20,000 nucleotides of DNA from Kondoa subrosea (Eukaryota): the NCBI GenBank assembly GCA_039545335.1, contig BCIN01000010.1:303574-323573 (forward strand), given 5' to 3'. Shown here one piece after another: positions 1-20,000 of this stretch. The notes under the pieces are model-generated. The model searched no databases. It worked only from the letters and a program-made list of their open reading frames with translations, and was not told where the DNA came from. Positions within the stretch are counted from its first letter, which is position 1. Each line of letters opens with the position of its first letter. Made by a program: the position numbers and the translations under genes.

Positions 1-2902
1 TAGCTGTCGGAGTCGGAGAGTAGGAATTATATTGCATGGGAGCCGGAGGAGGAGGGAGAGATGGATTTCGTTGTGGTTGAGCGTAAGATGAAGTTGAAGA
101 TGCCTGGCTCTGATATGGCTGCATACCATTTGTGCCTGCAGGATAAGAAGTCATCGACTGAGGCGATGGAGCGGGTCTGTATGCTGCAGGAGTTGGGGAA
201 TAGGAAGATACTGGTAATCGATTGGAAGACGGATTCGAGGAAGAGGGTCTCGTATCGGGGAAATGCACTCCGCCATGCAAGCTTGTTGCGGGAGTGGTGG
301 GATATTGAGGAAGATAAGGAGTTTGGTTCGATGACAAGTTGAGGCTCCCCATTGATTGACTCAGCGACGAGTCAGTAGAAGTATTCAGTCTGGACGAGAG
401 GTCTGCGGAAGCCACCGCTCTTGAGCGCTCGCTGGACCGTGTAGTCGTATACCTTGTGACACTTGCTCGGATACTGTCTACCAACTCCTTGAGATCTCGA
501 TAGAAAGCAATGCCTTTGCTGAGAACAGAAGGTCATGAGATTCGGCTGTTTGTGGAATGGACGTGAGCCTCACCCTAATCCAGCTCTAACGTCTTCGTAA
601 GCCTCGAAGGCTGAAGTGAAACGGCTTTCTAGCTCCTTTCTACCGCTATCAGCCGTATTCCATTGTTTTTGTATTGTCTTGGCGCTAGTACTTTCTGTCA
701 AGAGCCTATATTGTGTCGACAGCTCCTGCAAAAGCGATTGCTGGTGATGCAGTGTTGAGGCAATTCGAGCCTGATGAGGTCGGAACTTCTCCAATTCAGC
801 CGCAAACAGCGTCGGCTCAACATTCTGTGACTTGCGATTGAGAATAAGCAGATGAGAAATATCGTCCGCTTGCGTCTAGTATCAGTGCAACAAGCATCAG
901 TCTCTCAATCCCGCTCCTCTGACAGACATGCCTCACCCTTTCTTTGAGATCTTTGAGGACATCCGCGCGTTCTCTTTTAATTGCATACAGCCTCTCGATC
1001 AAACTTTCGACAGCTGCCACGGCCTGATCGATTTGAGCCTGGTCATCTTCGCTCGCATTGAAATCTCCCTCGCCCAGCAGGTCTAATTCTTTTGCATTGC
1101 CAGAAGATGATTGTAATGAGCTTGCATACAAGTGCTGCAAAGCTGAGAAATCGCTCAAGATTGCTACATCGGCCTTACAGCGGTCCCAAAGAGCTGACAC
1201 ATGCGAATCAGAGGCGGATGCGTCTTCGATTGCCGATTGCCGTTCTTTGATGTCAGTCTTGAGACTTCTAAATTCCATGACAGAAGCTGATGGTGCCTGG
1301 TTGAAGTGTGATGGATACTTGCGCCGAGCACTTTCGCAATCTCGTTCTTCGGTAGCTAAGTCTTGTGCCGAGCGTTCCAATTCGCCCAGACACTGGTTCT
1401 TGAGGCTGACAAGGGTGTTGAGGAATTCAGTAGTCTTTGTGGTCCGTTCTTGAGTCGACACCTCTCTCGAGTACTTCGCCACGTTCTGACTAGGTTCAAT
1501 AGACGAGGCAGTATCTTTGCTTTTGAATTTGGCCAGAGACGATGGAAGACCGAGATATTCTAATGAGGTGATCATTTCGCCATCTGCCACTTCAGCTCCT
1601 TCAGCTTCTTTCCTGACTAGTTTCGCTTTCTCCTCCGAATACATGCTTGCGCTTTCATGCACCGACAAGGGCACCAGCTTGATAAAAATGTCGGGGCCGA
1701 CAATCTTTTGAACTTCAGGATTCCCGTATACTTCTTGTATAGGAATTGGATCTGCTACTGATGTCTTCTCTAGGATTGGTAGGGAGGCTTCCAATGTAGG
1801 TTTGGCATGATAGATGAGATCGTTCTCCTTGGAAGCTGTTGCCAAAGCGGACTGAACGAGAGTTTGATGCGATTTGGTCATTTCATTCAAAGACGCAACC
1901 GAGTCAGCTGGAAGGGTCGGATTCAGGGAAGGTGCAAAGATAGCATGGAAATGGGATGCGTTGCGAGTCGCTTCTTTGGCCGATTCGACAGCTGAGGTCA
2001 ATCGAGTCAAAGCATCTCCATACTTGGTTGCTGTTGTATCGGCAATTGAGCGGTTGTATTGTGCCAATGAGGCAAAGTAGCTTGCTTTGCACTAAAGGAT
2101 GAAGGATCTCAAAACAGCAACTAGCGTGTGACGGAGATGCGAGCATACCTGAATCAGCAATGACCAGCTTCGACTAAACCAGCCCTTTGACACAAAATCC
2201 TTAAGATCTTCTTCTACAGAATGATAGAGTCCTGCAGCGGAATTGCAGACTTTCGCTTTCAAGCCAGCCCCTTTCTTGTCTGTCGACATACGCTCGATGA
2301 AGACTTCTGTTGCTTGACCCAGCATCAGTGCAATGAGGACTTTGACAACTTCTTTGGACAGGTCAGTGGAGGGTGCGTGAAGGAAATTGTCGTTGATATA
2401 GGTGTACATTCCAGCAGACTGCTTGAAATAGGTGAAGGCTCGCTTCAGACCTTCAGGAGAGGCCCTATTCTGGGAAGCAGCAAGAGCAGAAAGGGTTGCC
2501 GCAATGTTGAAGATGACGGAAGCCTTCTCGTAAGCCAATGACAGCTGTGAGATCTGCTTCTGGGTGAATGCATCGGCCCTGGAAGAGTTTCCGCTGTCAG
2601 GTCTCGCAACAAATATTCAACCAAAAACTACCTCACCAAGGAAACGGAACTCGAAGTTCAGGGAAACGCAGCTCAAGCAGCTCAAGTTGGCCAAAGTACT
2701 TGTATAGCAAATCTCTTGCTGTTACATCTGATCCAGCTGTGCCACGTAACGCATCTTGCCTACATCTATTCAGGGCTGCGCACTCGTCCGAATAATCGTC
2801 AGGCTTCTCGCCATAGACTGAACCAATGATTGATCTGATGGCTGGGGACCAATCCACTTCCTGCGTCACTTTCGACGGCGCGTACAGCAAAGGGGAGGTC
2901 AT
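1..2902 (-). CDS. BRO1: BRO1/ALIX-family ESCRT-associated vacuolar protein sorting protein (Bro1 domain, V domain, proline-rich tail); 3' end lies outside the window
   Basis: Exons 2902-2637, 2578-2149, 2091-937, 875-574, 518-<1, all with GT..AG introns of 55-61 nt. The spliced protein has Bro1-domain motifs ([95 protein letters not shown]), V-domain [10 protein letters not shown] and KGIAFYRDL, then a P/S/Y-rich tail still open at base 1. The proline-rich tail favours Bro1 over Rim20/PalA. Confidence 0.92.
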
Positions 2903-2987: not shown

Positions 2988-5099
2988 ATGGGCAAGCGAA
3001 CGTGAGCTTTTAATGCACTAATGCTTTACGCAAGAACTGATATTAGCTTTCATCAAGGGCGGAGTCGCAATTGACCCAGGATAATGTTCGTTTCGATATG
3101 TGGAACTTGCTTAGGATCAGGCTGATATTGCTGACAGGTGAACGATGCGTACGACGACGATTCTCATGAAGAAGGCAAAGATTTCGCGAAAGCCGCACCT
3201 GAAGCATTGCAGACCAGAAAGTTGGTTTGTCTGCTTTCATGCTGTGGAGAGATTTTTACCTAGGCAACAGAATCAAAGGGCTACCTAGCAGGAGGTCAGG
3301 ATCATCTACACCTGTGCAATCTCCCAAACCTTCGTCAGAAAACAAGGCATTCAACTTTAGTACATCTGCGAACCAAAGCAGCAATGCTTCATCAACCCTC
3401 GATAATCCATACATTTCGCTGCGAGGTCTCAATGTATCAGTGATCAACACACTGCAGAAGCTGATTACAGAAGACCCATTCACGAACTTATATGATCAGC
3501 TGTCGAACATGACACAAAAATACAAGATAGAGCGAGATCAGATCGATAAAACAACAGTCTCTTCTTCTGCTGGCACTACAACGCAAGGAGTCGTCAATTT
3601 TGCTGTGAATGGAGAGGTCGCAACTGCATCGCAACCGACACCAACTCCCTTTGCAGGATTTTCCTTTTCGTCTCCAGCATCCACATCCAAATCAACAATA
3701 GCAGAGAAGAAAGATAGTAAAAGTGGACCTCCGGCTCCTCCTGCGAATGGCTTCTCGTTTGGTGGTAAAGTTATGGGCACACCCGAATCCGCTAAAAATC
3801 TGCCCTCATCCTCATCTACACCTTCACCTGGAGGCTTTGTATTCGACGCCAGCAAAGTACCAAAGAATGCAGAAAAGTCGGCCTTTTCTTTCCCTGTTCA
3901 ACCTCCGGTCACCAGCAAGGAGCTAAGCGTGCCCAAACCACTTGCTGCCGTCAGCATGCCGTCACGTCCTTCTCCCTTGCGAGAGTCATCGCATGTCGAC
4001 TCACCTCCATCAGCGAAGAAAGCGGAAGAGCCAGTCAAAGTCAATCCATTTGCCTCTTTCGGTGGTTTCGGCAGCAACAAGCCTGTAATTCCACCGCCCG
4101 TCACAACAACAGCAGCAGAAACCCCTAGCAATCCTTTCGCGGCATTTCAACCCAGCAACAAGGCACAGTCAAGTAGCATCACAACACCATCGTTCAGTTT
4201 CGGATCTGCTGCAACTGCAACTGAAAGTGCACCCAAGCCTACCTTTTCTTTTGGGACGACAATAGCTAAAGATACAAAGAGTGAAACGAAAGCAGCTCCC
4301 ACATTCTCATTTGGTTCGGCTAATACAAGTCAAAGTTCATCTGATAAGCCGAGCTCTACTTTCAGTTTCGGCGCTCTTCCAGCCACTACAACATCGTCCA
4401 GCAGTGTTGCAACACCCTCTGTTACTTCTTCATTCTCTTTTGGTCAAGCAGCCAAGCCCGCCAATGTCGGCTTTTCTTTTGGATCAGCAACTTCAACAAA
4501 TAATGCGACACCATCCTTTTCATTTGGCGCTGCTAGTAGTGCGACGACTTCCAAGCCTGCATCGGTCGGTTTCTCTTTCACTCCTTCAGTACCGTCAACA
4601 GCTGCTTCCTCTCAGCCGCAATCTGAAGCTGAAGAAACACCAGCAGGCGAAGTTTCTGGACCGCCAGAAGTCGTTGACAACCCTCTGTTGACCACTGGCG
4701 AAGGTGAAGAAGATGAGACAACGCTACATGAAACGAGGGCAGCTGTTTATGTATTAGAGAAGGGAGCAGAAACGAAATGGGTCAATCGAGGAGTTACGCT
4801 CTTCAAGGTGAAAGAGGATTCTAAAAAGGGAAAGAAAAGGGTTCTAGCTCGGTTAGCTACTACTGCGTCTGGTACTATCGTCTTGGTATGCAAATCAGTC
4901 GTTTCCTTCTTCTCGCAGGCTGACAGTTGATCCATAGAATTTCAATATCCCTAAAGGCTGGAAAGCCGAATGTAACGGCAAAGAAGTGAGCTTTGTTGGT
5001 TTCTTTGGAGAGGAGAACAAGGCATGCAAAGTGAAAGTCAAGACTGTAGAAAAGGCTACGGAACTTAAAGAGGCGCTCAACGCTGCAGCTGAGGTGTAG
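2988..5099 (+). CDS. NUP2: Nucleoporin Nup2/Nup50 (N-terminal NUP50 importin-alpha-binding segment, FxFG repeats, C-terminal Ran-binding domain)
   Basis: Exons 2988-3001, 3058-3085, 3138-3220, 3271-4885, 4938-5099. The spliced N-terminus reads MGKRTAESQLTQDN...FAKAAPEALQTRKIKGLPSRR (Nup2/Nup50-type). It also has a helical segment YISLRGLN...EDPF, many FSFG repeats, and a RanBD-like C-terminus (GEGEEDETTLHETRAAVY...WVNRGV...RVLAR...IVLNF). Confidence 0.88.
3650..4582 (+). repeat. Coding FSFG/FxF nucleoporin repeats within NUP2
   Basis: Recurrent FSFG/FSFS/FSFT motifs separated by S/T/A/P/K-rich spacers in ORF 3227-4930; degenerate at the DNA level. Confidence 0.85.
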
Positions 5100-6449: not shown

Positions 6450-6651
6450 CGCATTGAGGCGCGAGCACCCTGAGAGCTATTTGCAAGAGCTGCAGAGGCG
6501 TCAGCAGCGAGGACTGGTGGAATCTCATCAACCTCGTGGGTGTCATCTTTGTTGACTGATATCAACGATGCAATCTTGGTGACTGGGCGATACAAGAGCA
6601 TAGACGTCTTCTTCAATTTGATACTGATACGCTCGACCGCCTCCGCAAGCC
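6450..6651. promoter_or_regulatory. Shared divergent promoter region HUS1-CDH1 (202 bp)
   Basis: Head-to-head ATGs at 6449 (-) and 6652 (+). Confidence 0.6.
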
Positions 6652-8743
6652 ATGGATTCAGATCTCTTCAAGCGGATGCGCACAGGGACAAGTCAATCTG
6701 CTGCAAGTGATAGTACAGCCAGCACGTCAAATTCAAACACTAGCTCTGGTTCGAGCTTGTTCTCTCGTCCTGGCACTGGAGCAACTTCTTCCAGCTCACA
6801 TTCCAGCACGCATCAAAGAGCAGAGTCGTTTAGCGGACATTCAAGCGAGAAGCTGTTTGACACAGGCAGTCCATCTTCCCCGCGGAAGAGCGCAAAGAAG
6901 GACAAGAGCTATGGCGATCGCTTCATACCTAGCAGAGATCCAACTGGAATGGATCTCACAACTACGTACCAGCTCATGGGCGATGGAACGCGGCCTGGGA
7001 GTGCTTCGAAAGGGAAACGCAAGCTTGACAAGACTGATATGGATGCAAGAAAGGACGAAGCCAACAAAACTTTCAACGCTCTTCTTCGATCAGAACTCTT
7101 TGGATCTACTTCACAATTGTCTCACTCAACTTCTCTACCTACTTCCCTCGCAGCAGCAGCTCAATTGGACGGAGGCTCTCCCTCTTCTACTGGAAGCAGA
7201 AGATACACCTCGTCGACATCAGGACATCCCATAGCATCTCATAGTCCACCTGGTACACCAAATTCGACTGGCTCAGCAGGATCTGCCTCGAAGAATCTCT
7301 TTTCTTTCTCCACTCCTTCTCGCAAACGTCTTGCATTGACAGCGGGGGCACAAGGCGCCGATTCGCCTACATCAGATCGATATGCTGTATCTCCTGTCCG
7401 ATACGAATCGCAACAATTACTGCTCTCCCCACGAAAGACACCACGCAACCTCTCAAAAGTCCCTTACAAGGTTCTAGACGCTCCTGATCTGGCAGACGAC
7501 TTCTATCTGAACTTGGTCGATTGGAGCTCGTCGAATAACTTGGGCGTGGGGCTTGGGAACTGCGTATATCTCTGGTCTGCTGCGACGAGTAAAGTCACTA
7601 AGCTGTGCGACTTCACGGAAAGGAACGACCCTATTACTTCTTTAGCTTGGATGAATAGAGTCAGTCCCAACCTCACGTTATCACATGCGCGCTCACATAG
7701 GAACAGGGTCCGCACATTGCGGTGGGCACCAACACGGGAGCAGTCGAAATCTGGGACGCTGAGACGCAACAATTTATCCGCAAAATGGGTGGTCATACAT
7801 CTCGTGTTGGCGCCTTATCGTGGAATGAAGCTACCCTCACCTCTGGCAGTCGAGACCGCAACATCTTTCACAGAGATGTACGAATACCAGATCAATGGAT
7901 CAAGAAGCTCTCTGGACATAAGCAGGAAGTTTGCGGCTTGAAATGGTCTTTCGATGGGAAACAGCTTGCAAGTGGGGGCAATGACAACAAACTCTTTGTT
8001 TGGGATGGGCTACGAAGCGACGGGCCTCTCTGGAAGTTCAGCGAGCATTCGGCTGCTGTGAAAGCTATTGCTTGGAATCCGCATCAGCAAGGCATCTTGG
8101 CCAGTGGAGGAGGTACTGCGGACAAGAAAATCAGGTTCTGGAATACCATCACTGGTACGATGCTGAGTGAGGTTGATACCGGGTCACAAGTCGGTTGCTG
8201 GTCAAGCTTTTCGGATCATAAGCTGATGGTTTCTCTCCAATCTGACAGATCTGCAATCTTGTGAGTTTTCGACACCCTGATTCACCAACTATGACCTGAT
8301 GATCTCTATTAGCTTTTCAGTACTACTTCGTCAGAGCTGGTCTCCACGCATGGTTTTTCAGCAGGTGCCGTGCAAAATCAAGTTTGTATCTGGAAATAGT
8401 CAGTGCCTTTACCGGCTCTATGACCAATACTAACATGGCTACAGTCCTTCGATGCAACAAGTGGCTACTCTGACTGGTCATACTTATCGCGTACTCTATC
8501 TTTCAGCAAGTCCAGATGGTGAGTCGATTTTTTTTTGACCTGCAACAAGTTTTCCAATTGTCTTTTATAGGGAGAACTATCGTTACAGGTGCTGGCGATG
8601 AAACGCTCCGTTTTTTTGAGCACATTTACTTCTGTATTCAGTTCATAGCTCATTATTTGTCTCCAGGGGATTGCTTCAAAGCAGCACCGAAGAATTCGTC
8701 AACCAACAGATCAGTTCTTGATCCAACAGCTAGTATCCGATAG
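6652..8743 (+). CDS. CDH1: APC/C co-activator Cdh1/Fzr1 (Hct1/Srw1), WD40 repeat protein
   Basis: Exons 6652-7659, 7707-8189, 8249-8260, 8313-8398, 8445-8518, 8571-8615, 8667-8743. It has the C-box DRFIPSR, SQQLLLSPRK..R..SKVPYKVLDAPDLADDFYLNLVDWS (Cdh1-type rather than Cdc20), WD40 repeats (GHKQEVCGLKW, LASGGNDN, LASGGGTADKKIRFWN, GHTYRVLYL), many SP/TP sites and a C-terminal IR tail. The last intron has an anomalous donor (see findings). Confidence 0.93.
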
Positions 8744-9083
8744 GCTGTCGATGCACTTGCAATAATAAAGGCGGTGGAGTAACGATGAACAGGGCTGCAT
8801 GCTAGCGAGAACTACTCGAGAACTCAGTCAAAGGCACTGCTCCGACTGTATTGAGTCGGATTGACTTTCGTCATCATCGCGCGACCATTGTTATTTGCCT
8901 CATGAGCCACCTCACTGCAAAGCTGTAGACACGCAAATATATCGGCAGCGAGCACAGTGGCAGCATTCGAAGTTTGGCACTGATCCTACAACACGTGAAT
9001 CTTTACTAATGATTATTTGCGTGCAATAGCATCCCTTGAACACGCCAGGTCTCGCGTTCTGGGCCTCTAGTAGCACAACGGTG

Positions 9084-10854
9084 ATGGCCAGCTCAAGTAT
9101 ATCCAGTGCCAAAACGTCCTCTGCTGCAGTAGCTTTCTCAGATTCACCAACGGAATTGTTCCTGTCGACCCCAGCTCCTGTGCTTCACTTGCTTGGATAT
9201 TCTGCTCCATTTATTCGCGCTCTCACACCTCTTGCTCAAGCACTGACCTGGAACAGTCCGAATCAATGGCATTCGTGGATTCTACTTGCGACATGGTGGT
9301 CCTCTTGTTTATGCGGAAGAGTATTGCTCAAGTACGGTCTGAATGCATCATTCTTGCTGCTACTTGGGTATGGTTTCCTAGCAGATAGAAGTAGAAAGAA
9401 GCGGAAGGAATTGAATACGAGGAGAGACGGTTTTGAAGCTGCTTTGTCGCCAGACAAGCTTCAATCAGTCATGGAAGAGACTAGGCTGTTGAATCAAGCC
9501 TTACAAGATATCATCTCTACCTTTATCGTACCAATTCGACAATTGCTAATGTGGAAGAACCCATCAGCGAGTAAACTTGCAATTTCGTATCTGATCACAT
9601 CATACCCCGCCTATCTCGCATTCACAATCCTTATCGGAACCCGATACTTTGTCTTGATCCTGGGTACCATAATGATTTCATGGCACGCGAAGTGGTTCCA
9701 AGTTTTATACAAAGCTGGCAGCAAGAGTCTAGTGTGTAGATGGATCGCTCAGACTATGCGTGCGATATCTGTAGATGGCGGACGCGGTCTCATGAAGCAA
9801 TTTCGGAGGGGAAAGAAAGCATCTTCAATCTTTGCGAGTCCTGACTTGGGTCTTTCGATTACTCAAACTGTGTCTGCGACCGTCCATGGCACTGTGGCGA
9901 ACTCATCGAATGTTGTCGATATCTCCTCTATCGCCAACTTGAAGGGCGACGTTGTGCAGGAGAAAGACGAAGCTGAAGAAGATCTGCCTGAGAGCGATGT
10001 CTTATTCACCTTCAACGTATATGAGAATCAGAGATGGTGGGTGGGCTTGAACTTCTCTCAAGCTCTCTTGCCAAACGAAAGAGCACCTTGGTGAGTTCTT
10101 GTCCCTTCAAGTCGCAAAACCCCATGACTGACCAATGCGTTGGTCAGGACCGACTATTCGCTAGCTGCAGTCCAGCCGCCCTCTTCTTTCACACTACCAG
10201 CTGTTCAAACCACTCTCATAGCAGCACCAACCAAATCTGATCCCACAGCAACTCTGAAAAGGACAACCCAATGGCAGTGGGTCGATACGGATTGGCATGT
10301 TCGACCCGACTCTACTAGCAAGATTCCAGTCAAAGCTTCAGCTGCACAAACTACTCTTCAGAGCAGCGCCAACACAGCTTCACCTTCCAATCCTGCAGCT
10401 TTTTCAGAATGGGCAAGAAACAAAGCTTTGCTGGCCAGTCAGAATGTCAGAAAGAGCGCTACCGAGAAGGAACAAACTTCTTCGCCGAACAAACACAAGA
10501 GAATGTCCAGTCTAATGAGTAATTCGGACGAAGATGCAAAGGATAGTAATCAGGATATGAGCAACAATCTACCTCGAGCGGCGGCTCTGAAGGAAGAGGA
10601 TAGCGAGACTTGGAGTGCGGATGCAGAAGGATGGCAGTACACAGATAATGCTTGGGAGAAACCTACAGCAACTGGTGGCATGGGTCAGTTTGCATCCGGA
10701 TACTTTATTACAGTCTGATATTGTGTCGATCACAGGTCGTTACACCAGACGGCGTATTTGGGTTAGAAGAGCCAAGGTAGTAGAGACCGTAGAAAGAAGC
10801 GCAGACGATACAGGCTTGAGAAAACGGCTTACAAGTACAACAGGCACAGATTAA
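9084..10854 (+). CDS. Pex23/Pex30-family integral membrane peroxin with a reticulon-like hydrophobic region and a split dysferlin domain
   Basis: Exons 9084-10090, 10148-10683, 10736-10854. Hydrophobic segments (SWILLATWW, LISYLITSYPAYL-type) are followed by DysF-N (FNVYENQRWWVGLNFSQALLPNERAPWTD), WQWVDTDW and DysF-C (EGWQYTDNAWE...GRYTRRRIWVRRA). The start is taken as the first in-frame ATG (9084). The exact paralogue is not assignable. Confidence 0.82.
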
Positions 10855-10919
10855 TCTATTCTATCATGTGACAAGTATACAAGAACGACTTATGTATACA
10901 ACAATTCATGTGCATCAAC

Positions 10920-12043
10920 TTACATACACCAGCTCAGTAACCATCCTACAGCACAGACGTAAACTACTCTGCTTATCGCTTTCCATGCTGTACTCTTTTG
11001 CCAAGACCCAAAGACATTCAGGCCAGCGCTGAAAATTGGTCTGGCACCAAAGAGAAGTGGATCGAAACCAGAGGTATGGAAAGGCGAACATCGACTCTGA
11101 GCATCTTGACTTGATTCTGTCCCAGACGAGGGGCCATCCTCGTCAGATATTCCAGCGTCCTCTTGAGATGCGGTGTAGCCAGTCATTGATCCCGTATGAG
11201 ACGCAACCATATGCTCGTCAGTAGGTGTCGAGGCTTGCTCAGATGGTCTTGGGCTGACAGAACGCCAATCGAAAAACTTGTTCATGTTCTCTTCATGTAT
11301 AGCAGATATGATACGGGAATCGGTTAAATCGACCAGGGTCTGTGGGCACCACGAGGCAGGTTGTAACGTAACGATATTGATATTTGTCAATTGCTGCCGT
11401 ATACTGTCGGCATTCACTGATGGAAGACAGAAGGGCAGAATAGCTATGAAGGAGTTGCTGGTTTCTAGTTGTGCAAAAGTCGCAGCTACACTTCATCAGC
11501 TCTCGTAAGATTCGACACGGTCGTTTTTGACTCACAATCAATGTCAGACCCGTCGAATATCGCAAGAACGGCATAATTCATTAGCCTCGATGCAGCTGAA
11601 TGGACCAGACTTCTCGCTGTCGGAATGAGAGAGGAAGCGATGTGCTTGGAGAGTATAAGATCAAGTTGTCGAAAGGTTTCAGGTATTGAGAGCTCTTCTT
11701 CTAGTAGTCGTACGCTGTTTCCCAATTGCGAAGCGATGACATCGCGCTGGTCACCTGGACCCAAGTCTGAGTTGGCTAAAGGCAATAAGAACTGCTGAAG
11801 CTCACTCGTTGAGCCTATAATCTTGACACGGAGCCGTGCAACCTGTGTTGGAACATCTTCCAAGTCCCCCTCATTCACAAGATCCAATCGAGGTAAAACT
11901 AGACTATTGGCGAGCGAATCAAGGCCACTGTGATCGATCGGAGAGTGTGGATCCGATGTGTCTGATAGCGGAAGCTCCAAGGGGCTCTCTGGTGAAGATG
12001 TAATGCTCTGTTCTCGATTGATGACCTGATAAGAGCCTTCCAT
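10920..12043 (-). CDS. Uncharacterised 357-aa tail-anchored protein; candidate Atg32-like selective autophagy receptor
   Basis: ORFs 11486-12043 and 10920-11417 join in frame through one 50-nt intron 11535-11486 (GTGAGT...GCTGAT...TAG); exons 12043-11536 and 11485-10920. It has N-terminal YQVI, an S/P/acidic disordered stretch, a central alternating alpha/beta-like region, an acidic linker and the hydrophobic C-terminus AISRVVYVCAVGWLLSWCM. The gene model is well supported; the function is inference. Confidence 0.75.
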
Positions 12044-12181
12044 CTGGCCTGATTTCGCGTATTTATTGGTCCGCTAAATGCTTGCGTATGAGCGTTGAAG
12101 TCGATGTCCAGCGCACTAGAAGCGCCTTGATTGTTTTGGATCAAAGGGAGATTCACGAGTTGTTCACAACCGCCAGGAGGC
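12044..12181. promoter_or_regulatory. Shared divergent promoter region orphan gene-PIG-X (138 bp)
   Basis: Head-to-head ATGs at 12043 (-) and 12182 (+). Confidence 0.55.
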
Positions 12182-12919
12182 ATGACTCTGGCGACATCTT
12201 CTTTTCGTGGCCAGGGACTTCACCTTGAATTGATCACTCACATCAAATTGCAGACTCTCCCCGCGCAATGCTCACTTCACATTTTATACCTAATTCCAGC
12301 TTCCTTCATTCTTGACGTCTTTCAAGTTCAGGAATTGGTTAACGGTCATCATTTGACCAGCTCCAGGGATTGCAAAGCGAAGATTCTGCATTTAGATGAA
12401 AGAGATTTGGAACTCCCGTTCGAGCGAGCAAACAATGGCAGCGCAATGGCTTGGATCGATTTGGGATCTGGGGTCGAACCGGCAGAATGGACTGTGACTA
12501 TGCCTTTACACTTGAGGACACATTTGCCGACAAGAGATAAAGAACGGTTTAGAAGTGTTCAGCTATCTTCGCCGATGCTGTTGGGAGCCTGCGAGTCAAG
12601 GGAAGCACAAGGTGCGCGTCGAAGTCTGAAGTTATATGCTTGGCTTGAACAGAACACCTTATCTGATATAGATGCTCTCAACTGTTCTGCCGAAGATTTA
12701 CTTCTACCTCAAATCCCTTCTGACCTCGTATCTTTCCACCCATTGGCGACGTCGTGCTCGTGGAAAGACCAGCGGCTCCTTTCTGCCCAATTACCAGTGG
12801 GATCCCTATCGCATGAAGTCTGGGTAAACAGAATCAATATCTTTGTCATCTGGTCTTGCGTTCTTGTCACCTTGTACATCGCTCTACGCAAGCAGACTGA
12901 AAAGCTGAAGCGCCAATGA
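12182..12919 (+). CDS. PBN1: PIG-X/PBN1-family subunit of GPI mannosyltransferase I
   Basis: Family-like motifs GLHL, IPASFILDVFQV, DLELPFE, MPLHLRTHLP and LPVGSLSH, followed by one TM segment and a C-terminal KLKRQ (KxKxx ER retrieval signal). There is a probable in-frame 60-nt intron 12612-12671 (GTGCGC...CTGAT.TAG). The first ATG is at 12182. Confidence 0.8.
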   Translation: MTLATSSFRGQGLHLELITHIKLQTLPAQCSLHILYLIPASFILDVFQVQELVNGHHLTSSRDCKAKILHLDERDLELPFERANNGSAMAWIDLGSGVEPAEWTVTMPLHLRTHLPTRDKERFRSVQLSSPMLLGACESREAQGARRSLKLYAWLEQNTLSDIDALNCSAEDLLLPQIPSDLVSFHPLATSCSWKDQRLLSAQLPVGSLSHEVWVNRINIFVIWSCVLVTLYIALRKQTEKLKRQ

Positions 12920-13157: not shown

Positions 13158-15609
13158 CTATGCGTCTGCGGAAGTGTCTGCATCATTGTTGCCAGTCCTC
13201 TCCTCGCCCCAGAGCTGAACTCGGACCTGAATATTTTGCTTCAGCAGATGCAGTGAGTAAGGAATATTTGCTGTTACTCACATTCTCAAAGACTTTGAGC
13301 ACTACACACAGAAACGTCAGCGACCATTGAGTGGAACGAAAAATCCTACTGACATTTCCGACGAGCTCCTTGAGCGGAAACTCCCTTAGCTTCCAAAGCA
13401 GCTTCATCCATCTTGACCATATCCTGCCACTTGCTACCTTCAAAGTTTGGAGTGTATCTATTCCGAGTGAATGAGATAGCGAACGGGATTTAAGCTATAA
13501 AGAACCCTTACTTGTGTAATCTCAAGCTTCTCATCCACGCAGGGACATCGTTCAACAATGTCACATCGACCACTTCGTCTGGGTTAGAGCCACTGCCAGG
13601 AATGACAGGAGGTGGCGGGCGAGCACTAGGACTTTGATGACCTCCTCCACCACCCAAACGAGGTGATCTTCTGTCACCCATTCTTCCTCCTGGACTTATT
13701 CCACCATTACTGTTTGGACCACCTGGGCTGTTCATTCCACCAGAATTATTGCTGGGCAAACCGAGACCCATAGCATTGAAATTAGCCGAAAGCATATTGC
13801 CTAAACCCATTCCTGGGTTCATTCCATTCATAACCATTAAATTTTGCTGTAGTTGCAATTGAGCTTGCATCTGTTGCTGCATCTGCTGTTGTTGCATGAG
13901 TAGAGCGTTAGCCATATCAGCAGGAGACATGTTTCCGGTAATCGGGGTGTTGCTGTTTGAATTATTGGTGGAAGACGACAAAAGACCATTAACACTTCGC
14001 CAATTCTGTTGCGCGGACAGGGCAGCTGCTTGTTGTGGACTGAGCATACTGTTGGTGCTGGCGCTCAGATTCGGTGATGTAGGCAGCATATTGCGCTGCT
14101 GGGCTTGGCCAGCAGAAACAACTCTGCGTTGTGCTTCACCGACATATGAGTTATTCGGAGACGTGCCATTGCCATTGGGACGTCCGGGCCTTCTGAACTT
14201 CTTTGCATCATCCAACACCAAATTGGGATTGATTGCGTTGAACTGAGAAGAAGCAACAGTGTTCCAGCCAGCTAGAGCATTGTTGACGCCAGAAGCATCG
14301 AAACGAGGACTCAGAGGTGTGTCACCATTGTCGGGTTGCGAAAACATAGGCACGACAGGGGTATTGACCATAGAAGCCCAGCTACCTCCACCAACCATAG
14401 GACTCAACTCGGCAAAGCTTGTTGCTCCAAGATTAGGTGATCTCATAATATTGTTATCGGAATTGCCAGCGGTGATACCATAATCAGAACCAGTAGATTT
14501 AGGGCGTTGGGAATTTGGTGATGCAGAGCGAACAGATTGTTCCGCAATAGCTTCTGGTGCTAAACCACCCCAGAGTCCACCACCAGCAGAGCCAGAGCCA
14601 AAGTTGTTGCTCGACAAAGTGCCGGGTGCGGAAATTCGATGAGCTTGAGCCTTAAGTTTAGCACGTTGAGAATTGAGCAAAGAAGAGCTACTGTCTTCAG
14701 TATTGAGGGCAGAAGCTGGCGAGAGGTAATTTCCAAAGTCGTTTGCTGCGCTTGCGCCCAAGGACTGACGAGCGAATTGCCGAATGACAGGCGATGCAGG
14801 TGACTTGAGTCCCATTGAAGCAAGCTTGGCTTCCATTTGAGCCTCCATAGACGCTAGTTACTTTGGTGAGCGATTGATCGTAAATCCATACACACGACTT
14901 ACCTTGCTGGGGATTGCTGGGGCTGAACAATGCGGCGTTGCTGGGATCGCATCGAGCCATCTGTTGTAGAACAGTGATGAAGAAGCGGATCTGTACTTGA
15001 GTACTTGATTGAAGCAAGCTGTACAGGGCAGCTGTTCTTTCGGCTTCAGATAGAACTCGGAACCATTGTTCAATAGCTGATAACTCTTCTTTGAAGTTCT
15101 GCAGAATGACATTAGGTACTTAAGACAATCATTGGGGTGACGTTTATATATACCTGATCAAGTGAAGCAGCAGCCATCTCTTCCAGAGTTTGCTCATAAT
15201 GTTGCAAATCCTCAAACCACCTGTCAATTGCATCCGCTGCAAGACCGCTTTTGAGCCGAATTACGATACTTATGCAGGCCAATTACTCACATTCAGGATC
15301 AGCCATGCCAGCTGAACCGGGTAACATCTCGCTGCTAGGTCTAGGACCTCTTGGAGCAGCATAGGTTCCACTCGTATTTCTGTTGGCTTCTGATCTGAAT
15401 TTGTTGCCAGGTGCAGTGGTAGGTTGCAACGTAGCGGACGCAGGACTTTGTCTGCCTACATTTGCGGCGGCTAGCGATGAAGGCGCGCCCGAATGACTTT
15501 GCGAGTGCTGATGCCTTGATTGAACGCCCAAATGCGATGAAGCAGTCACTGTTTGTTGCTGTGAGAAGCTTCGGGAGACAGGAGGTGGAGTAGGAGCTGG
15601 TGAAGACAT
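13158..15609 (-). CDS. VTS1: Vts1/Smaug SAM-domain RNA-binding protein
   Basis: Coding exons 15609-15291, 15236-15154, 15098-14903, 14853-13512, 13457-13354, 13301-13282, 13226-13158. It has the conserved N-terminal block [55 protein letters not shown]...[12 protein letters not shown], the motifs [10 protein letters not shown] and LDDAKKFRR, and the SAM domain [18 protein letters not shown]...[23 protein letters not shown]. Confidence 0.93.
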
Positions 15610-15668
15610 CTGTAATTGATAAGTCAATGTCATTCCATAGGCCCCTTTGTTTCGGCTTGCAAACTGAC
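15610..15668 (-). other. Probable 59-nt 5'-UTR intron of VTS1 ending immediately before the ATG
   Basis: The minus strand reads AG|GTCAGT...TTGAC...TTACAG|ATG; length and signals match the other introns in the window. Confidence 0.6.
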
Positions 15669-16017
15669 CTCGTCTGATATATATGATATTTAAGAATATA
15701 TAGAGTTCTGGAAGCTGACTGTTGAGTCACTGCTCGAACTTGGGGGCAAAGAAAGAGCAGTGCGTGATTCCGGGTCTCAAAAATCCCTGCCAGAGGTAAC
15801 AAGGGAGTGCTGATGGAGCTATGGGGGCGCCCAGATTCAGAACTAGCTGTGAATGCAGCGGACCAGCCCAATTTGAACGAAGAACGAGGTTTGGGAGCAA
15901 CCGCGGAAACTCGACAAGAAGGCAACAACTGGAACGCGGATAAAGGGGCCAATGAAGCTTCTTGAGCTCTATGAGCAACTAGCAGGAATCTATAGCTTGC
16001 GCTCGGTTACAAATGTG

Positions 16018-17265
16018 CTACCTTTTCTTATCCCCGTCTGCTGTTAGACTAGTCAACCATCGCTTGAATGCCTTAGTTTCCAAATGCGAACTGGCTCTAT
16101 CGCCTTCTTTGCCCCATTCTGTATTGTAGGCATCCAGCAATGCCTCCGTTAGAATCAGGTCTACATCGTCGAGCTTTTGTGGACTGGAAGTAGCGGTTTG
16201 AGAATTGGGGGAAGGCGCTTTCGACCCTGGGAATCCAGTCCCTTGTAGTTTCGGAATGCACTGTATGTTTGTCTCAGCAGAGAACACCGGTCAGCTCGAG
16301 ATAGCGCATACGAGTTTTACTCCAATAGCAGCCCTTCTTGCAACTCCGCCTTTCGCGATGCCTCCCTTCCCACTCAGCTCCAAAACCCGCAAATACATAC
16401 GATAGGACAATTCCAGATCGCCCACAGTATACGCTGTCTCGGCATACCGCAGAGCGAAGTAAGGGTTTTGAGGTTGTAAAAGAAGAAGATCGCCAAGTGC
16501 TGAAAGAGCTTGTTGATACCTGTGCTGACGAGAATTAGTACAAGAAAGGAGCACAGTCCTCCGTGTTGCTCACATGCCTAAGGAAGAGTACACTTCCGCC
16601 AATTCTTGCCAAGCTTCGACATCTGTATAGACTGTGTCGAGGTGCTCGACCAGCAATTCGATGCCTCGCTGCTGTGAAAGTTTAGCTGTTGATCTGGTAG
16701 CAACTTCTTTTGACATGGACTGTGCTGCGGAGTTTGAAGCAGGGGAAGAAGAATGATAGAGGTGAAGGGAAATGAGCCGTTTACGAAGAGCCTGCTCACA
16801 AATAAGGCATGCAAGCGTTGCGAGAAGCGAGAGAAGCATACGATATTGTTCTCGTCAGCTGCTAGCTCATTCTCGCAGAACAATCGAGCAGCTTCAAAGT
16901 GACCTTCAGCTTCCAGACCCATCTCTTGCAACGGCTTGACCCTAGGGCTGTCTGGGAACTTCTTTGCCAGTCTATCGATACACACCTGAGCATAGCGCTA
17001 AGATCAAAGCTCGTTCTCTGCTGAGCTCAACAGGTGAACTCACGCTCGCTAAATCCATCTTGCCCATGTCGAGCGCGGCTACTGCCAACTGATCAAGGAA
17101 GCTCCAAACATCGTCCTTCATTGCCTTTGTGCCATTCCCTTCCAATATCGCTTCCCCATGCTCACAGACCAGTCTTGAATCTCGAACAGCATTCTTGCGT
17201 AGCTTAGCAAGGACTTCTATCCGTTCAGCTGTCGTTGGTGGCTGCTTTGGTGGTAGCTCTCGCAT
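16018..17265 (-). CDS. EMC2: ER membrane protein complex subunit 2 (TPR protein)
   Basis: Exons 17265-17044, 16985-16842, 16791-16574, 16519-16312, 16260-16018. Motifs: DDVWSFLDQLAVAALDMG, CIDRLAKKFPDSPRV, ENNIALRKRLI, LVEHLDTVYTDVEAWQELAEVY, YQQA...LLLLQPQNPYFALRYAETAYT. Confidence 0.9.
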
Positions 17266-17350
17266 GTCTCACAGATTTGAGGGCGAAGTACAGAAACGTT
17301 GAAGTCCAACCATCGTTCAGTCTGGATAATATTCTTGGATTTCGTGCACG
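17266..17350. promoter_or_regulatory. Shared divergent promoter region EMC2-PTH4 (85 bp)
   Basis: Head-to-head ATGs at 17265 (-) and 17351 (+). Confidence 0.6.
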
Positions 17351-18216
17351 ATGTTCTTAGTGTCACTGGCCTATAGAAGATCTGCTTTACGGTGTTTCGC
17401 ACATATACAGCAATTGCGGCCTATATCCTCAGAAAAACCTATCGATACTTTGGATTCGGATTCGGATCTTCTTCGTGCTCAAGCTTTTGTAAAAGACTTT
17501 GCAGTCACAGATCTGCCAAAAGGTCGTTCGCTTTGCAGTTTAGGATTGCTCCTTTCAATTTACATCGTGAAGCTATCAGATGCTCTTACTTCGACCTTCT
17601 CTCGCTCCTCTGGACCTGGAGGACAAGTTGGTCTTCTTCCGTTTCCTTATGTCACTGCATATCATCTCATATCACCCTTGTAGAATGTCAACAAAGGTGT
17701 TGTTGCTTCTTTCACTGCAAGCCAGTGCGAATCTTATGATACGGGTCAAGTCTCCACGAAATGTAGTTTGAGACTATCGCTCTCTTCGGCTGAAGCCTTC
17801 CTGCACCCGTATATAATACGAAACCTTCGTTCTTCTGTCCGTTTTTCTTCTTCTTTTAGTTTCCTGCTATACTCCCGCGCGTTTTGTCTGACGGTGTCAA
17901 ATTTCAGAGTTACTTTGTGAAATCATCGAATAGCATTTTGGTTCAAGCATCTACGCATCGAACACAGGCTTTGAATGCCGAAGCAGCCCTCAGCCGGTTA
18001 CATGCTATAGTATTGGAGGCAGCTTCAGAAGGTTGGTTCTTCATTTGAACATGCTTAAAAGCAGGCTGATTTTTTGGCTCAGGATTGCGAGGAGTTACTT
18101 CATCAGAACAAAAGAATCGGGTTGCAGGACTGGAAAAGGCTCAAAAAGCTAGAGTGAAAGCTGCCAAGGAAGTACGCAGATCTATAAAGAGCTCAAGGGG
18201 CAAAGTGTCGTTCTGA
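17351..18216 (+). CDS. PTH4: Mitochondrial codon-independent peptidyl-tRNA hydrolase / ribosome rescue factor (ICT1/ArfB family)
   Basis: Exons 17351-17522, 17580-17626, 17684-17696, 17751-17836, 17908-18031, 18083-18216. It has an Arg-rich presequence-like N-terminus, FSRSSGPGGQNVNKVSTKC (GGQ), ILVQASTHRTQALNAEAALSRL and a basic C-terminal tail (KAAKEVRRSIKSSRGK). Confidence 0.88.
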
Positions 18217-18413
18217 TGCTACATCTGGGTTGAATATCATGTCATAGTAGATGAGCAGCGAATACTATCGTTCATCACCCGCATAAGTCTGGTGAAATGC
18301 ATTATCGCATATTAACCTGTTTTGGCCATCTCGACCTGCTCAATCATTCAGTGTTCATTGCTCAAAACCTATTCTGATCTTGCTGACTACACGCCAAACG
18401 GTCGTCATACGCC

Positions 18414-19638
18414 ATGTCGTTCTCTGATCTCGAATCTGGTCTCGCTCGAGGGGAACCAAGCAGTGCGGTCTTCCCTTCTCGCATCATCATGCCTCTCGCT
18501 TTAATTGAGATGTATTATAGAAGGCAACACTTTCGATACTCTTTGCTCCTCAGTTGGTCTGAGCTGTTTCAAGATCAACTCGAATGTAACTGGAATTCAA
18601 CGTTTGGTCGAATTGCTCGGAGGGTCGAAGGATACGCCTGCAATACGCAAGAAGCTGTCTGTCATCCCAACCTAGTCATATGTATGACCTGCTAGAGATC
18701 TGATTTTCTTGTATAACACAGGACAAACTTGACTGAAGTAACCAGGGAACTCATTATCGCTTCAACAGAAGATGTTAAACGACTTTCTTCATTACAACCT
18801 CCTCCTGTAGGATTTCTTTCACCCGGTCATCTTCCTACAGCTGATCAGGAATTCCTCTTAGAAAGGACAAGCGAAACTTACCCAAGCCAAGATCTCAACG
18901 GAATTCAAAGCTTCAGTGGATAAGTTTCAAGCAGTACAGAAGCTTGCTCTAGGTAAACAGAAAATAGCTGTCAATCAACATAAAGCTGCTTTGGAAGAAG
19001 GTGGAACTTCATCGCCTGCAATGTGAGCAATCAATTTCATTTGACATGAATGACAAAGACTCAGATGGATATCAGTACACCTACTTCTCGATCGAGGGAT
19101 GGACAGCTTGTCGAATTGGAAGAGCAGAGGTACGTTGATGCGTTTGCAACTTTGCCTGATTCGTGGGTTCTGAAAATGCGTCAAGACCGCAACAACAGAT
19201 ACAAATATCAGCAGTGTCAGATTCAGAGTTAGAGTACCAAGAACAATTGATCGAAGAACGTGAGGGCGAGATCAGAGAAATCGAGTCCGGCATTCATGAG
19301 CTCAACGAAATCTTTCGGGATCTGGGTACAATTGTGCATGAACAACAATCCATGCTGGGTCTGTTCACATCTAGATCATATTCCCAGTTAAGATACTGAA
19401 TTGATCTCCCATTTAGATAACATCGAATCTAACGTTATCAATGTTGCCAATGACACTCAAGGCGCTTCTTCTGAATTGACTACGGCTCATGAATATCAGA
19501 AGAAAGCAGGGCGAAGAATGTTCTGGTTGCTGATAATCTTCGTTGTCGTTACAATGATTGTACTGCTGGCAGTAAGCAACCTGGATCCAAGCTTTCTGAT
19601 TGCTAGATATTGATTTTCGACTGCAGGTATTGGCTTGA
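18414..19638 (+). CDS. PEP12: Endosomal/vacuolar Qa-SNARE, PEP12/VAM3 (syntaxin 7/12-like)
   Basis: Exons 18414-18462, 18521-18656, 18722-18806, 18862-19022, 19076-19129, 19186-19358, 19417-19571, 19627-19638. It has MSFSDLESG, an Habc region (FKINSNV...LGGSKDTPAIRKKL), the SNARE motif LIEEREGEIREIESGIHELNEIFRDLGTIVHEQQSMLDNIESNV and a C-terminal TM anchor. PEP12 and VAM3 cannot be distinguished here. Confidence 0.85.
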
Positions 19639-19763
19639 GAGGGTTTTGGGCCGTGTATTATCTATGTACAAAGGACTCTATCAGGAACTAATCAGCGTTG
19701 AGCATGCCACGTATAGCTCCGAAGCATACTGATGTTATCAATATTCACATGATTGCTTATGCA

Positions 19764-20000
19764 TCACTTCTCTCCCGGTCGGGGTGTCAAGCTCAGATAC
19801 AGCACCAGACCACCTAGAGCAGCTATTGAAACCAATAGTTGAGAATTGAAAGACCCAATATGGAAGCTCTGTGATGATTTTGAGCAGGCCCTCGCGCAGC
19901 TATCGTGACAAGCTTGACAAACACTACTTGCAGAATCTATGGGACTTGTATTGAGGTAGTGCTGAATAAGAAAAGCGGTCATTGCAAGAAATGAGATTGC
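19764..20000 (-). CDS. Probable 3' end of an unidentified membrane protein gene entering from the right edge
   Basis: The frame is open from base 20000 to TGA at 19766-19764. Two hydrophobic stretches (AISFLAMTAFLI; LLVSIAALGGLVLYLSL) flank a Cys/Ser-rich loop. No family was recognised. Confidence 0.4.
   Translation of the reverse strand, partial: AISFLAMTAFLIQHYLNTSPIDSASSVCQACHDSCARACSKSSQSFHIGSFNSQLLVSIAALGGLVLYLSLTPRPGEK

Follow-up and report, generated by a model that had tools for sequence, protein, structure and literature searches.

A predicted tail-anchored orphan protein of Kondoa subrosea with the layout of a selective-autophagy receptor

A 20,000-nucleotide stretch of the Kondoa subrosea genome was analysed (GenBank assembly GCA_039545335.1, contig BCIN01000010.1, positions 303,574 to 323,573 of the forward strand; this whole stretch is the window below, and positions are counted from its first letter). 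On its minus strand, at 12043-10920, lies what is very probably a genuine two-exon gene encoding a 357-residue protein. By its translation the product is predicted to be a largely acidic, tail-anchored protein with a motif of the Atg8-interacting motif (AIM) type at its N-terminus, and a selective-autophagy receptor on the surface of an organelle is tentatively proposed as its most likely specific role, at rather less than even probability. A preliminary description of the locus had gone further, reading the protein as a remote homologue or analogue of Atg32, the mitophagy receptor of budding yeasts.

The locus and its gene model

An upstream stop precedes the first exon, which starts at the next ATG in frame; the open reading frame (ORF) of the second exon lies in a different frame. 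Joining the two at 11536|11485 restores the frame and yields 357 residues followed by a stop, so that the spliced protein of the preliminary description was borne out by the in-frame splice and also by the coding signal described below. In the predicted 50-nt intron the CTGAT sequence sits 10 nt before the TAG acceptor. The sequencing runs listed for the stretch are two of DNA, from a single sample that may be its source, and none of RNA. Twenty-five frame-keeping GT..AG pairs were tried, three of which have a GTGAGT donor, and the 50-nt version retains the most coding sequence. Inspection by eye of nearby ORF boundaries gave three neighbouring introns, approximately 50-60 nt long, with GTATGC, GTCAGT or GTGAGT as donors and branch sites of the CTSAC type; TACTAAC was seen in none of the three. 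This intron style, short, with a CTSAC-type branch site and without TACTAAC, speaks against a Saccharomycetes-type yeast.

Seven neighbouring ORFs, of which five carry Pfam domains, served to train a codon-usage log-odds score. The proposed frames were the only ones with positive scores (+0.076 bits per codon for exon 1 and +0.073 for exon 2), with values of -0.07 to -0.40 in the other five frames, while the training ORFs themselves scored +0.03 to +0.30. A real gene is further indicated by the two open frames, each about 190 codons long, which a canonical 50-nt intron, like the three neighbouring ones in type, connects in frame. These observations make it very unlikely that the locus holds no real protein-coding gene or that the model is wrong, whether through a chance pair of ORFs, another splice or a missed exon, even though the model was predicted from DNA sequence alone and its frame has no homologue to back it. 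The short distance of 138 bp to the start codon of the adjacent, divergent PIG-X gene counts in favour of such an error, as do the donor-like sites GTATGT and GTAAGT that overlap the stop codon.

Together with GTGTAT, these donor-like sequences lie at 10918-10929 on the minus strand, over the final codons of the gene and its stop. Extension of the C-terminus by splicing from these donors was considered and rejected: every candidate extension was at most 49 aa long, Cys-rich and antisense to the Pex24p-like gene next to it, with a non-coding look. As there is no credible 3' exon, the hydrophobic segment is most likely the end of the protein. The absence of a domain C-terminal to the anchor, part of the preliminary description, thus held, with the stop codon directly after the hydrophobic segment and no plausible downstream exon.

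Architecture of the predicted protein

All of the motifs quoted in the preliminary description are present in the translation, including YQVI at 12031-12020. The features of the gene and protein are listed in Table 1.

Table 1. Features of the predicted tail-anchored protein gene and its upstream region (positions in the window)
Feature	Position	Strand	Remarks
Exon 1	12043..11536	-	508 nt; residues 1-169 and first base of codon 170; based on translation and codon score
Predicted intron	11535..11486	-	50 nt, phase 1; GTGAGT donor, CTGAT branch-like site, TAG acceptor
Exon 2	11485..10920	-	Residues 170-357 and stop TAA at 10922-10920
GSYQVI, residues 3-8	12020..12037	-	AIM-like, fits extended six-residue pattern; Y5 is the sole aromatic in residues 1-66
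Ser/Thr/Asp/Glu/Pro cluster with interspersed Leu, residues 13-35	11939..12007	-	Low-complexity match, without statistics
NSLVLPRLDL, residues 46-55	11879..11908	-	Boundary between disordered N-terminus and ordered core
Ordered core, residues 67-244	11262..11845	-	Interrupted by the intron; based on low disorder propensity by composition
Acidic Ser/Thr-rich linker, residues 245-305	11079..11261	-	High disorder propensity
SGFDPL, residues 308-313	11055..11072	-	Second extended-AIM match; end of acidic linker, just before hydrophobic C-terminus
Weaker first hydrophobic stretch, residues 311-331	11001..11063	-	By eye; outside the top Kyte-Doolittle windows
C-terminal hydrophobic anchor (predicted), residues 339-357	10923..10979	-	Best 19-residue Kyte-Doolittle window, mean 1.57
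Intergenic region	12044..12181	.	138 bp, bounded by the ATG of this gene on one side and the first ATG of the PIG-X/PBN1 ORF, which is divergent, on the other

The first 66 residues have a net charge of -11, contain 11 Ser and 7 Pro, and show a high propensity for disorder. The sequence SITSSPESP (residues 13-21) opens the Ser cluster, in which S16, S20 and S34 lie in CK2-like sites and [ST]P occurs at 17, 20 and 34. Within the core are RLRVKIIGST (70-79), YAVLAIFD (157-164), AILPFCLP (within 182-191) and IVTLQP (207-212), and the core ends in KFFDWR (239-244). The linker that follows has a net charge of -9 over residues 251-305, and FDPL occupies residues 310-313. K333, K338 and R342 are on the N-terminal side of the anchor, and no residue follows it. 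Judged by hydropathy, the protein would cross the membrane once, by a single transmembrane (TM) segment, with its N-terminus in the cytosol.

Candidate role as an autophagy receptor

As an organelle-surface receptor, the protein would be fixed by its anchor on a mitochondrion or another organelle and would face the cytosol. Y5 and I8 would dock into two hydrophobic pockets of Atg8, and phosphorylation of the adjacent Ser cluster would recruit the Atg11 scaffold. This proposal is drawn from the architecture and from one weakly non-random motif. The extended six-residue pattern for AIMs and LC3-interacting regions (LIRs), written after the iLIR definition, has two matches in the protein, GSYQVI and SGFDPL. 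The chance of a full match at Y5 was 0.042 when only the N-terminus was shuffled and 0.097 when the whole protein was shuffled, which suggests that the match is weakly non-random, though not significant. It is the sole aromatic residue of the N-terminal region that falls in this full match, and a cluster of S, T, D and E with hydrophobic residues lies directly downstream. The regions that interact with Atg11 or FIP200 have been described loosely as acidic or phosphorylatable residues beside two hydrophobic ones (PMC10940145), and the Ser cluster fits this description. At the other end, the hydrophobic segment closes the protein, and basic residues flank it on what would be its cytosolic side.

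Several observations weigh against a receptor role. The bare AIM pattern [WFY]xx[LIV] occurs 8 times in the whole protein against 5.3 copies expected, and 58% of shuffled sequences carry it within the first 60 residues. On this point the preliminary description is weak, since the bare motif that it quoted is no more than chance would give; its acidic disordered linker, C-terminal hydrophobic segment and order of motifs were all found. The Ser/acidic cluster is of low complexity, and many disordered regions would match in the same way. A Kyte-Doolittle mean of 1.57 over 19 residues, R342 included, is borderline for a TM helix, and both the intron and the 3' end were predicted from sequence alone. 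To our knowledge, most tail-anchored proteins are not autophagy receptors. Database searches, in which the translations of exon 1 and exon 2 were used separately and with single-sequence methods only, also gave no encouragement. Neither half matched any Pfam family at E ≤ 10, and searches of PDB sequences at E ≤ 10 with both halves and two sub-regions gave chance matches only (superoxide dismutase, ribosomal L13, a cytochrome subunit and ApoA-IV) and no Atg32 chain, although the presence of Atg32 in the searched libraries was not established. Neither the exon-1 half nor residues 1-80 of the exon-2 half had a usable match in the ESM Atlas, and no orthologues were found in the searches of the separate halves.

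It is quite possible, if well short of even, that the protein is tail-anchored but has a job outside autophagy, such as an organelle tether, a docking site for a cytosolic enzyme or a regulatory scaffold, and that its AIM-like motif and Ser cluster are fortuitous. Disordered regions that are acidic, rich in Ser and supplied with CK2-like sites occur commonly in proteins of eukaryotes. The weak motif statistics fit this explanation, as do the lack of any autophagy-related family in Pfam at E ≤ 10 and the flanking genes (Pex24p-family peroxin, PIG-X/PBN1, CDC20, BRO1/ALIX and RanBP1 nucleoporin), which carry no hint of autophagy. However, a single N-terminal aromatic in a complete extended-AIM context has only a 4-10% chance of arising at random, the layout as a whole is the one that known receptors have (PMC7609059), and no alternative family was detected either.

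Relatives and sampling of the lineage

The wider searches for relatives were also blank. Searched with phmmer, the exon-1 half gave no protein at E ≤ 0.001 among 1.84 billion representatives, and word-indexed searches of longer proteins gave nothing for either half (proteins of 329-2000 aa for the exon-2 half). A metagenome scan with the exon-1 half gave 342 pattern matches, which came down to two loci, each with a 19-residue match of 68% to residues 53-71; these were judged to be chance matches and rejected.

As a control for sampling, the adjacent ORF of the Pex24p family (9030-10094) was searched against proteins of 621-2000 aa. Only 4 relatives were found among 6170 candidates: three from Microbotryomycetes yeasts, with 27-31% identity, and one from the Onygenales, with 26%. 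By this one neighbouring gene, the host apparently stands nearer to the basidiomycete yeasts. Close relatives in that length class are thus lacking even for a recognisable peroxin, which indicates that the lineage is thinly represented. The orphan status of a fast-evolving, half-disordered protein is therefore explained in part by the thin sampling of its lineage in databases, and a fast-evolving receptor in a poorly sampled lineage would be expected to look like an orphan. The blank searches were of low power, because the protein is short and fast-evolving and was searched in separate halves, so they do not refute remote homology.

Structure prediction gave little further information on the core. 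AlphaFold2 models made without an alignment for the separate halves had a mean predicted local distance difference test (pLDDT) of 40.2 for residues 1-169 and 39.5 for residues 171-357, and were unusable. Co-folding of residues 45-169 with residues 171-255 in ESMFold2 gave a score of 0.00 and a mark of 0.34, which is evidence neither way. The preliminary description had also been reminded of septin-like, degenerate P-loop membrane proteins, a link that has no support. There are five Lys in the whole protein, none of them preceded by Gly, hence the Walker A motif GxxxxGK[ST] of septin/AIG1-type P-loop GTPases is missing, and no GTPase family was matched in Pfam at E ≤ 10. The sole likeness to these GTPases is KIIGST, in which Gly-Ser-Thr comes after a hydrophobic, strand-like run.

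Comparison with Atg32

The published map of Atg32 places the AIM (WQAI) at residues 86-89 with Ser 81, 83 and 85 upstream, followed by an Atg11 region with S114 and S119, a Ppg1-binding region at 151-200, a pseudo-receiver domain at 200-341, the TM segment and a C-terminus in the intermembrane space (PMC8122514, PMC8700587). The protein described here has its parts in the same order: an AIM-type motif, a Ser cluster in the place of the phospho-Ser Atg11 stretch, an ordered region in the place of the folded domain and a predicted TM segment near the C-terminus. A Ser just upstream of the AIM is likewise shared, as seen in GSYQVI. The differences are equally clear. No sequence similarity to Atg32 was detected in the searches of the separate halves, the AIM of Atg32 is at approximately residue 86 and of the Trp type whereas the motif here is of the Tyr type at residues 5-8, and no segment comparable to the Ppg1-binding region was recognised. 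Atg32 is a 59-kDa protein, compared with 357 aa here, and has a domain in the intermembrane space, while the protein here ends with its anchor. Because that domain is a defining part of Atg32 and is absent, the protein was not filed as a member of the Atg32 family.

One form of the receptor proposal is that the protein is nevertheless a true, very remote homologue of Atg32 outside the budding yeasts, which would have kept the AIM, the phospho-Ser stretch, the pseudo-receiver core and the anchor, and either lost the intermembrane-space domain or never had it. This is unlikely. The match in the order of features to the published map (PMC8122514, PMC8700587) speaks for it, but the Pfam, PDB, phmmer and word-indexed searches described above were blank or without an Atg32 chain, there is no domain beyond the anchor, and reviews confine Atg32 to budding yeasts, with no clear orthologue in Magnaporthe or other filamentous fungi (PMC8700587, PMC7711908). 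No Atg32 homologue in basidiomycetes turned up in the literature searched.

The preliminary description had set a series of Atg32 fragments beside the motifs of this protein. The series agrees with what we take to be the sequence of Saccharomyces cerevisiae Atg32, which is a presumption and not a result. A further presumed likeness is the five-residue word at D169-F173, which exists only after the splice and which may, as an unverified lead, occur in the Atg32 pseudo-receiver as well. The distance from this word to the strand that ends in Gln-Pro, approximately 42 residues here (D169 to Q211), is presumably nearly equal in Atg32, likewise as an unverified lead. If this holds, FIAILPF (182-188), and not YAVLAIFD, would presumably be the better partner of the corresponding Atg32 strand. 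The best of the presumed blocks scores only about 18 bits in a rough by-hand BLOSUM62 calculation; for a single pair of proteins as large as these, this corresponds to E of about 0.7. Several such short blocks in collinear order stay below formal significance, in keeping with the blank phmmer result.

Comparison with other receptors

The known mitophagy receptors have a common layout without mutual sequence homology (PMC7609059), and one of them is Atg43 of Schizosaccharomyces pombe. This 27-kDa protein has a Tyr-type AIM, YELI, at residues 28-31 and a C-terminal TM segment, the same arrangement of an N-terminal Tyr-type AIM in the cytosolic part and a C-terminal TM segment as is predicted here (PMC7609059). 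Atg43 is described as having no homology to other receptors, and an AIM anchored to mitochondria suffices for its function (PMC7609059). It differs in that its C-terminus is protected inside mitochondria and that it did not co-precipitate efficiently with Atg11 (PMC7609059). The C-terminal region of Atg43 has relatives across fungi (PMC7609059); of the searches made here, the one free of length limits was that with the exon-1 half, and the exon-2 search covered proteins of at least 329 aa, longer than a protein of 27 kDa. This conserved C-terminal region, with its TM segment, is described as binding the MIM complex.

The same general design, a cytosolic LIR under the control of nearby phospho-sites and a C-terminal TM segment, is found in the mammalian outer-membrane receptors BNIP3/NIX, FUNDC1, BCL2L13 and FKBP8 (PMC7609059, PMC8122514). 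These receptors are metazoan and are unrelated to the protein described here in sequence and in domains (BH domains, FKBP). The layout thus arises repeatedly by convergence, which on its own argues that the protein may work like a receptor of this kind, not that it is an Atg32.

Genomic neighbourhood

Upstream of the predicted gene is an ORF of the PIG-X/PBN1 family (12131-12919, plus strand; Pfam E = 1.6e-27), which is divergent from it and has its first ATG at 12182. The head-to-head start codons, 138 bp apart, point to a very compact bidirectional promoter in the region between them, which holds CCAAT and AATAAATA approximately 25-35 nt upstream of the ATG of the tail-anchored protein gene. 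On the other side, the gene lies tail-to-tail with the Pex24p-family peroxin gene (9030-10718, plus strand; Pfam E = 2.8e-26), and a gap of about 200 bp separates their stop codons. The peroxin gene appears to contain an intron of 58 nt, GTGAGT...CAG, at approximately 10092-10149. The peroxin neighbour prompted consideration of a peroxisomal anchor of the Pex15/Pex26 type, which was rejected: there was no Pfam match at E ≤ 10, and adjacency alone is no evidence.

Further away are a protein with BRO1 and ALIX V domains (2-2616, minus strand), an FG-repeat nucleoporin with a RanBP1 domain (3203-4930, plus strand) and a CDC20/Fizzy WD40 protein (6628-8264, plus strand), all three with apparent short introns. 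A 449-codon open frame at 13508-14857 on the minus strand is rich in Ser, Asn, Gln and Gly, has poly-Gln runs and is without a match in Pfam at E ≤ 0.01. Judged by eye, its C-terminal end looks similar to what we take to be the start of a SAM/Vts1-type domain. From 15000 to 20000 there are short open frames without Pfam matches except for a weak one to DUF5853 (E = 0.002, below the cut-off), and GC content drops to 0.43-0.44 at 18-20 kb of the window. Scans of the window for tRNAs and Rfam families gave no match. The neighbourhood offers nothing towards autophagy.

Implications for mitophagy in fungi

For filamentous and basidiomycete fungi, reviews describe the mitophagy receptor as unknown; they know of no clear orthologue of Atg32 beyond the budding yeasts, and Atg24/SNX4 and others have been proposed in its place (PMC7711908, PMC9980689, PMC13757524). 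A protein with a tail anchor and an AIM at its N-terminus would offer a candidate for such a receptor that is concrete and cheap to test. As this is a motif-level candidate from a poorly sampled organism, its practical value hinges on orthologues in tractable species. If the protein were, against the greater likelihood, a true homologue of Atg32, then Atg32-type, Atg11-coupled receptor mitophagy would predate the Saccharomycotina and would have been missed elsewhere only through evolution too fast for sequence searches. Such homology would revise the view of these receptors as independent inventions of each fungal lineage.

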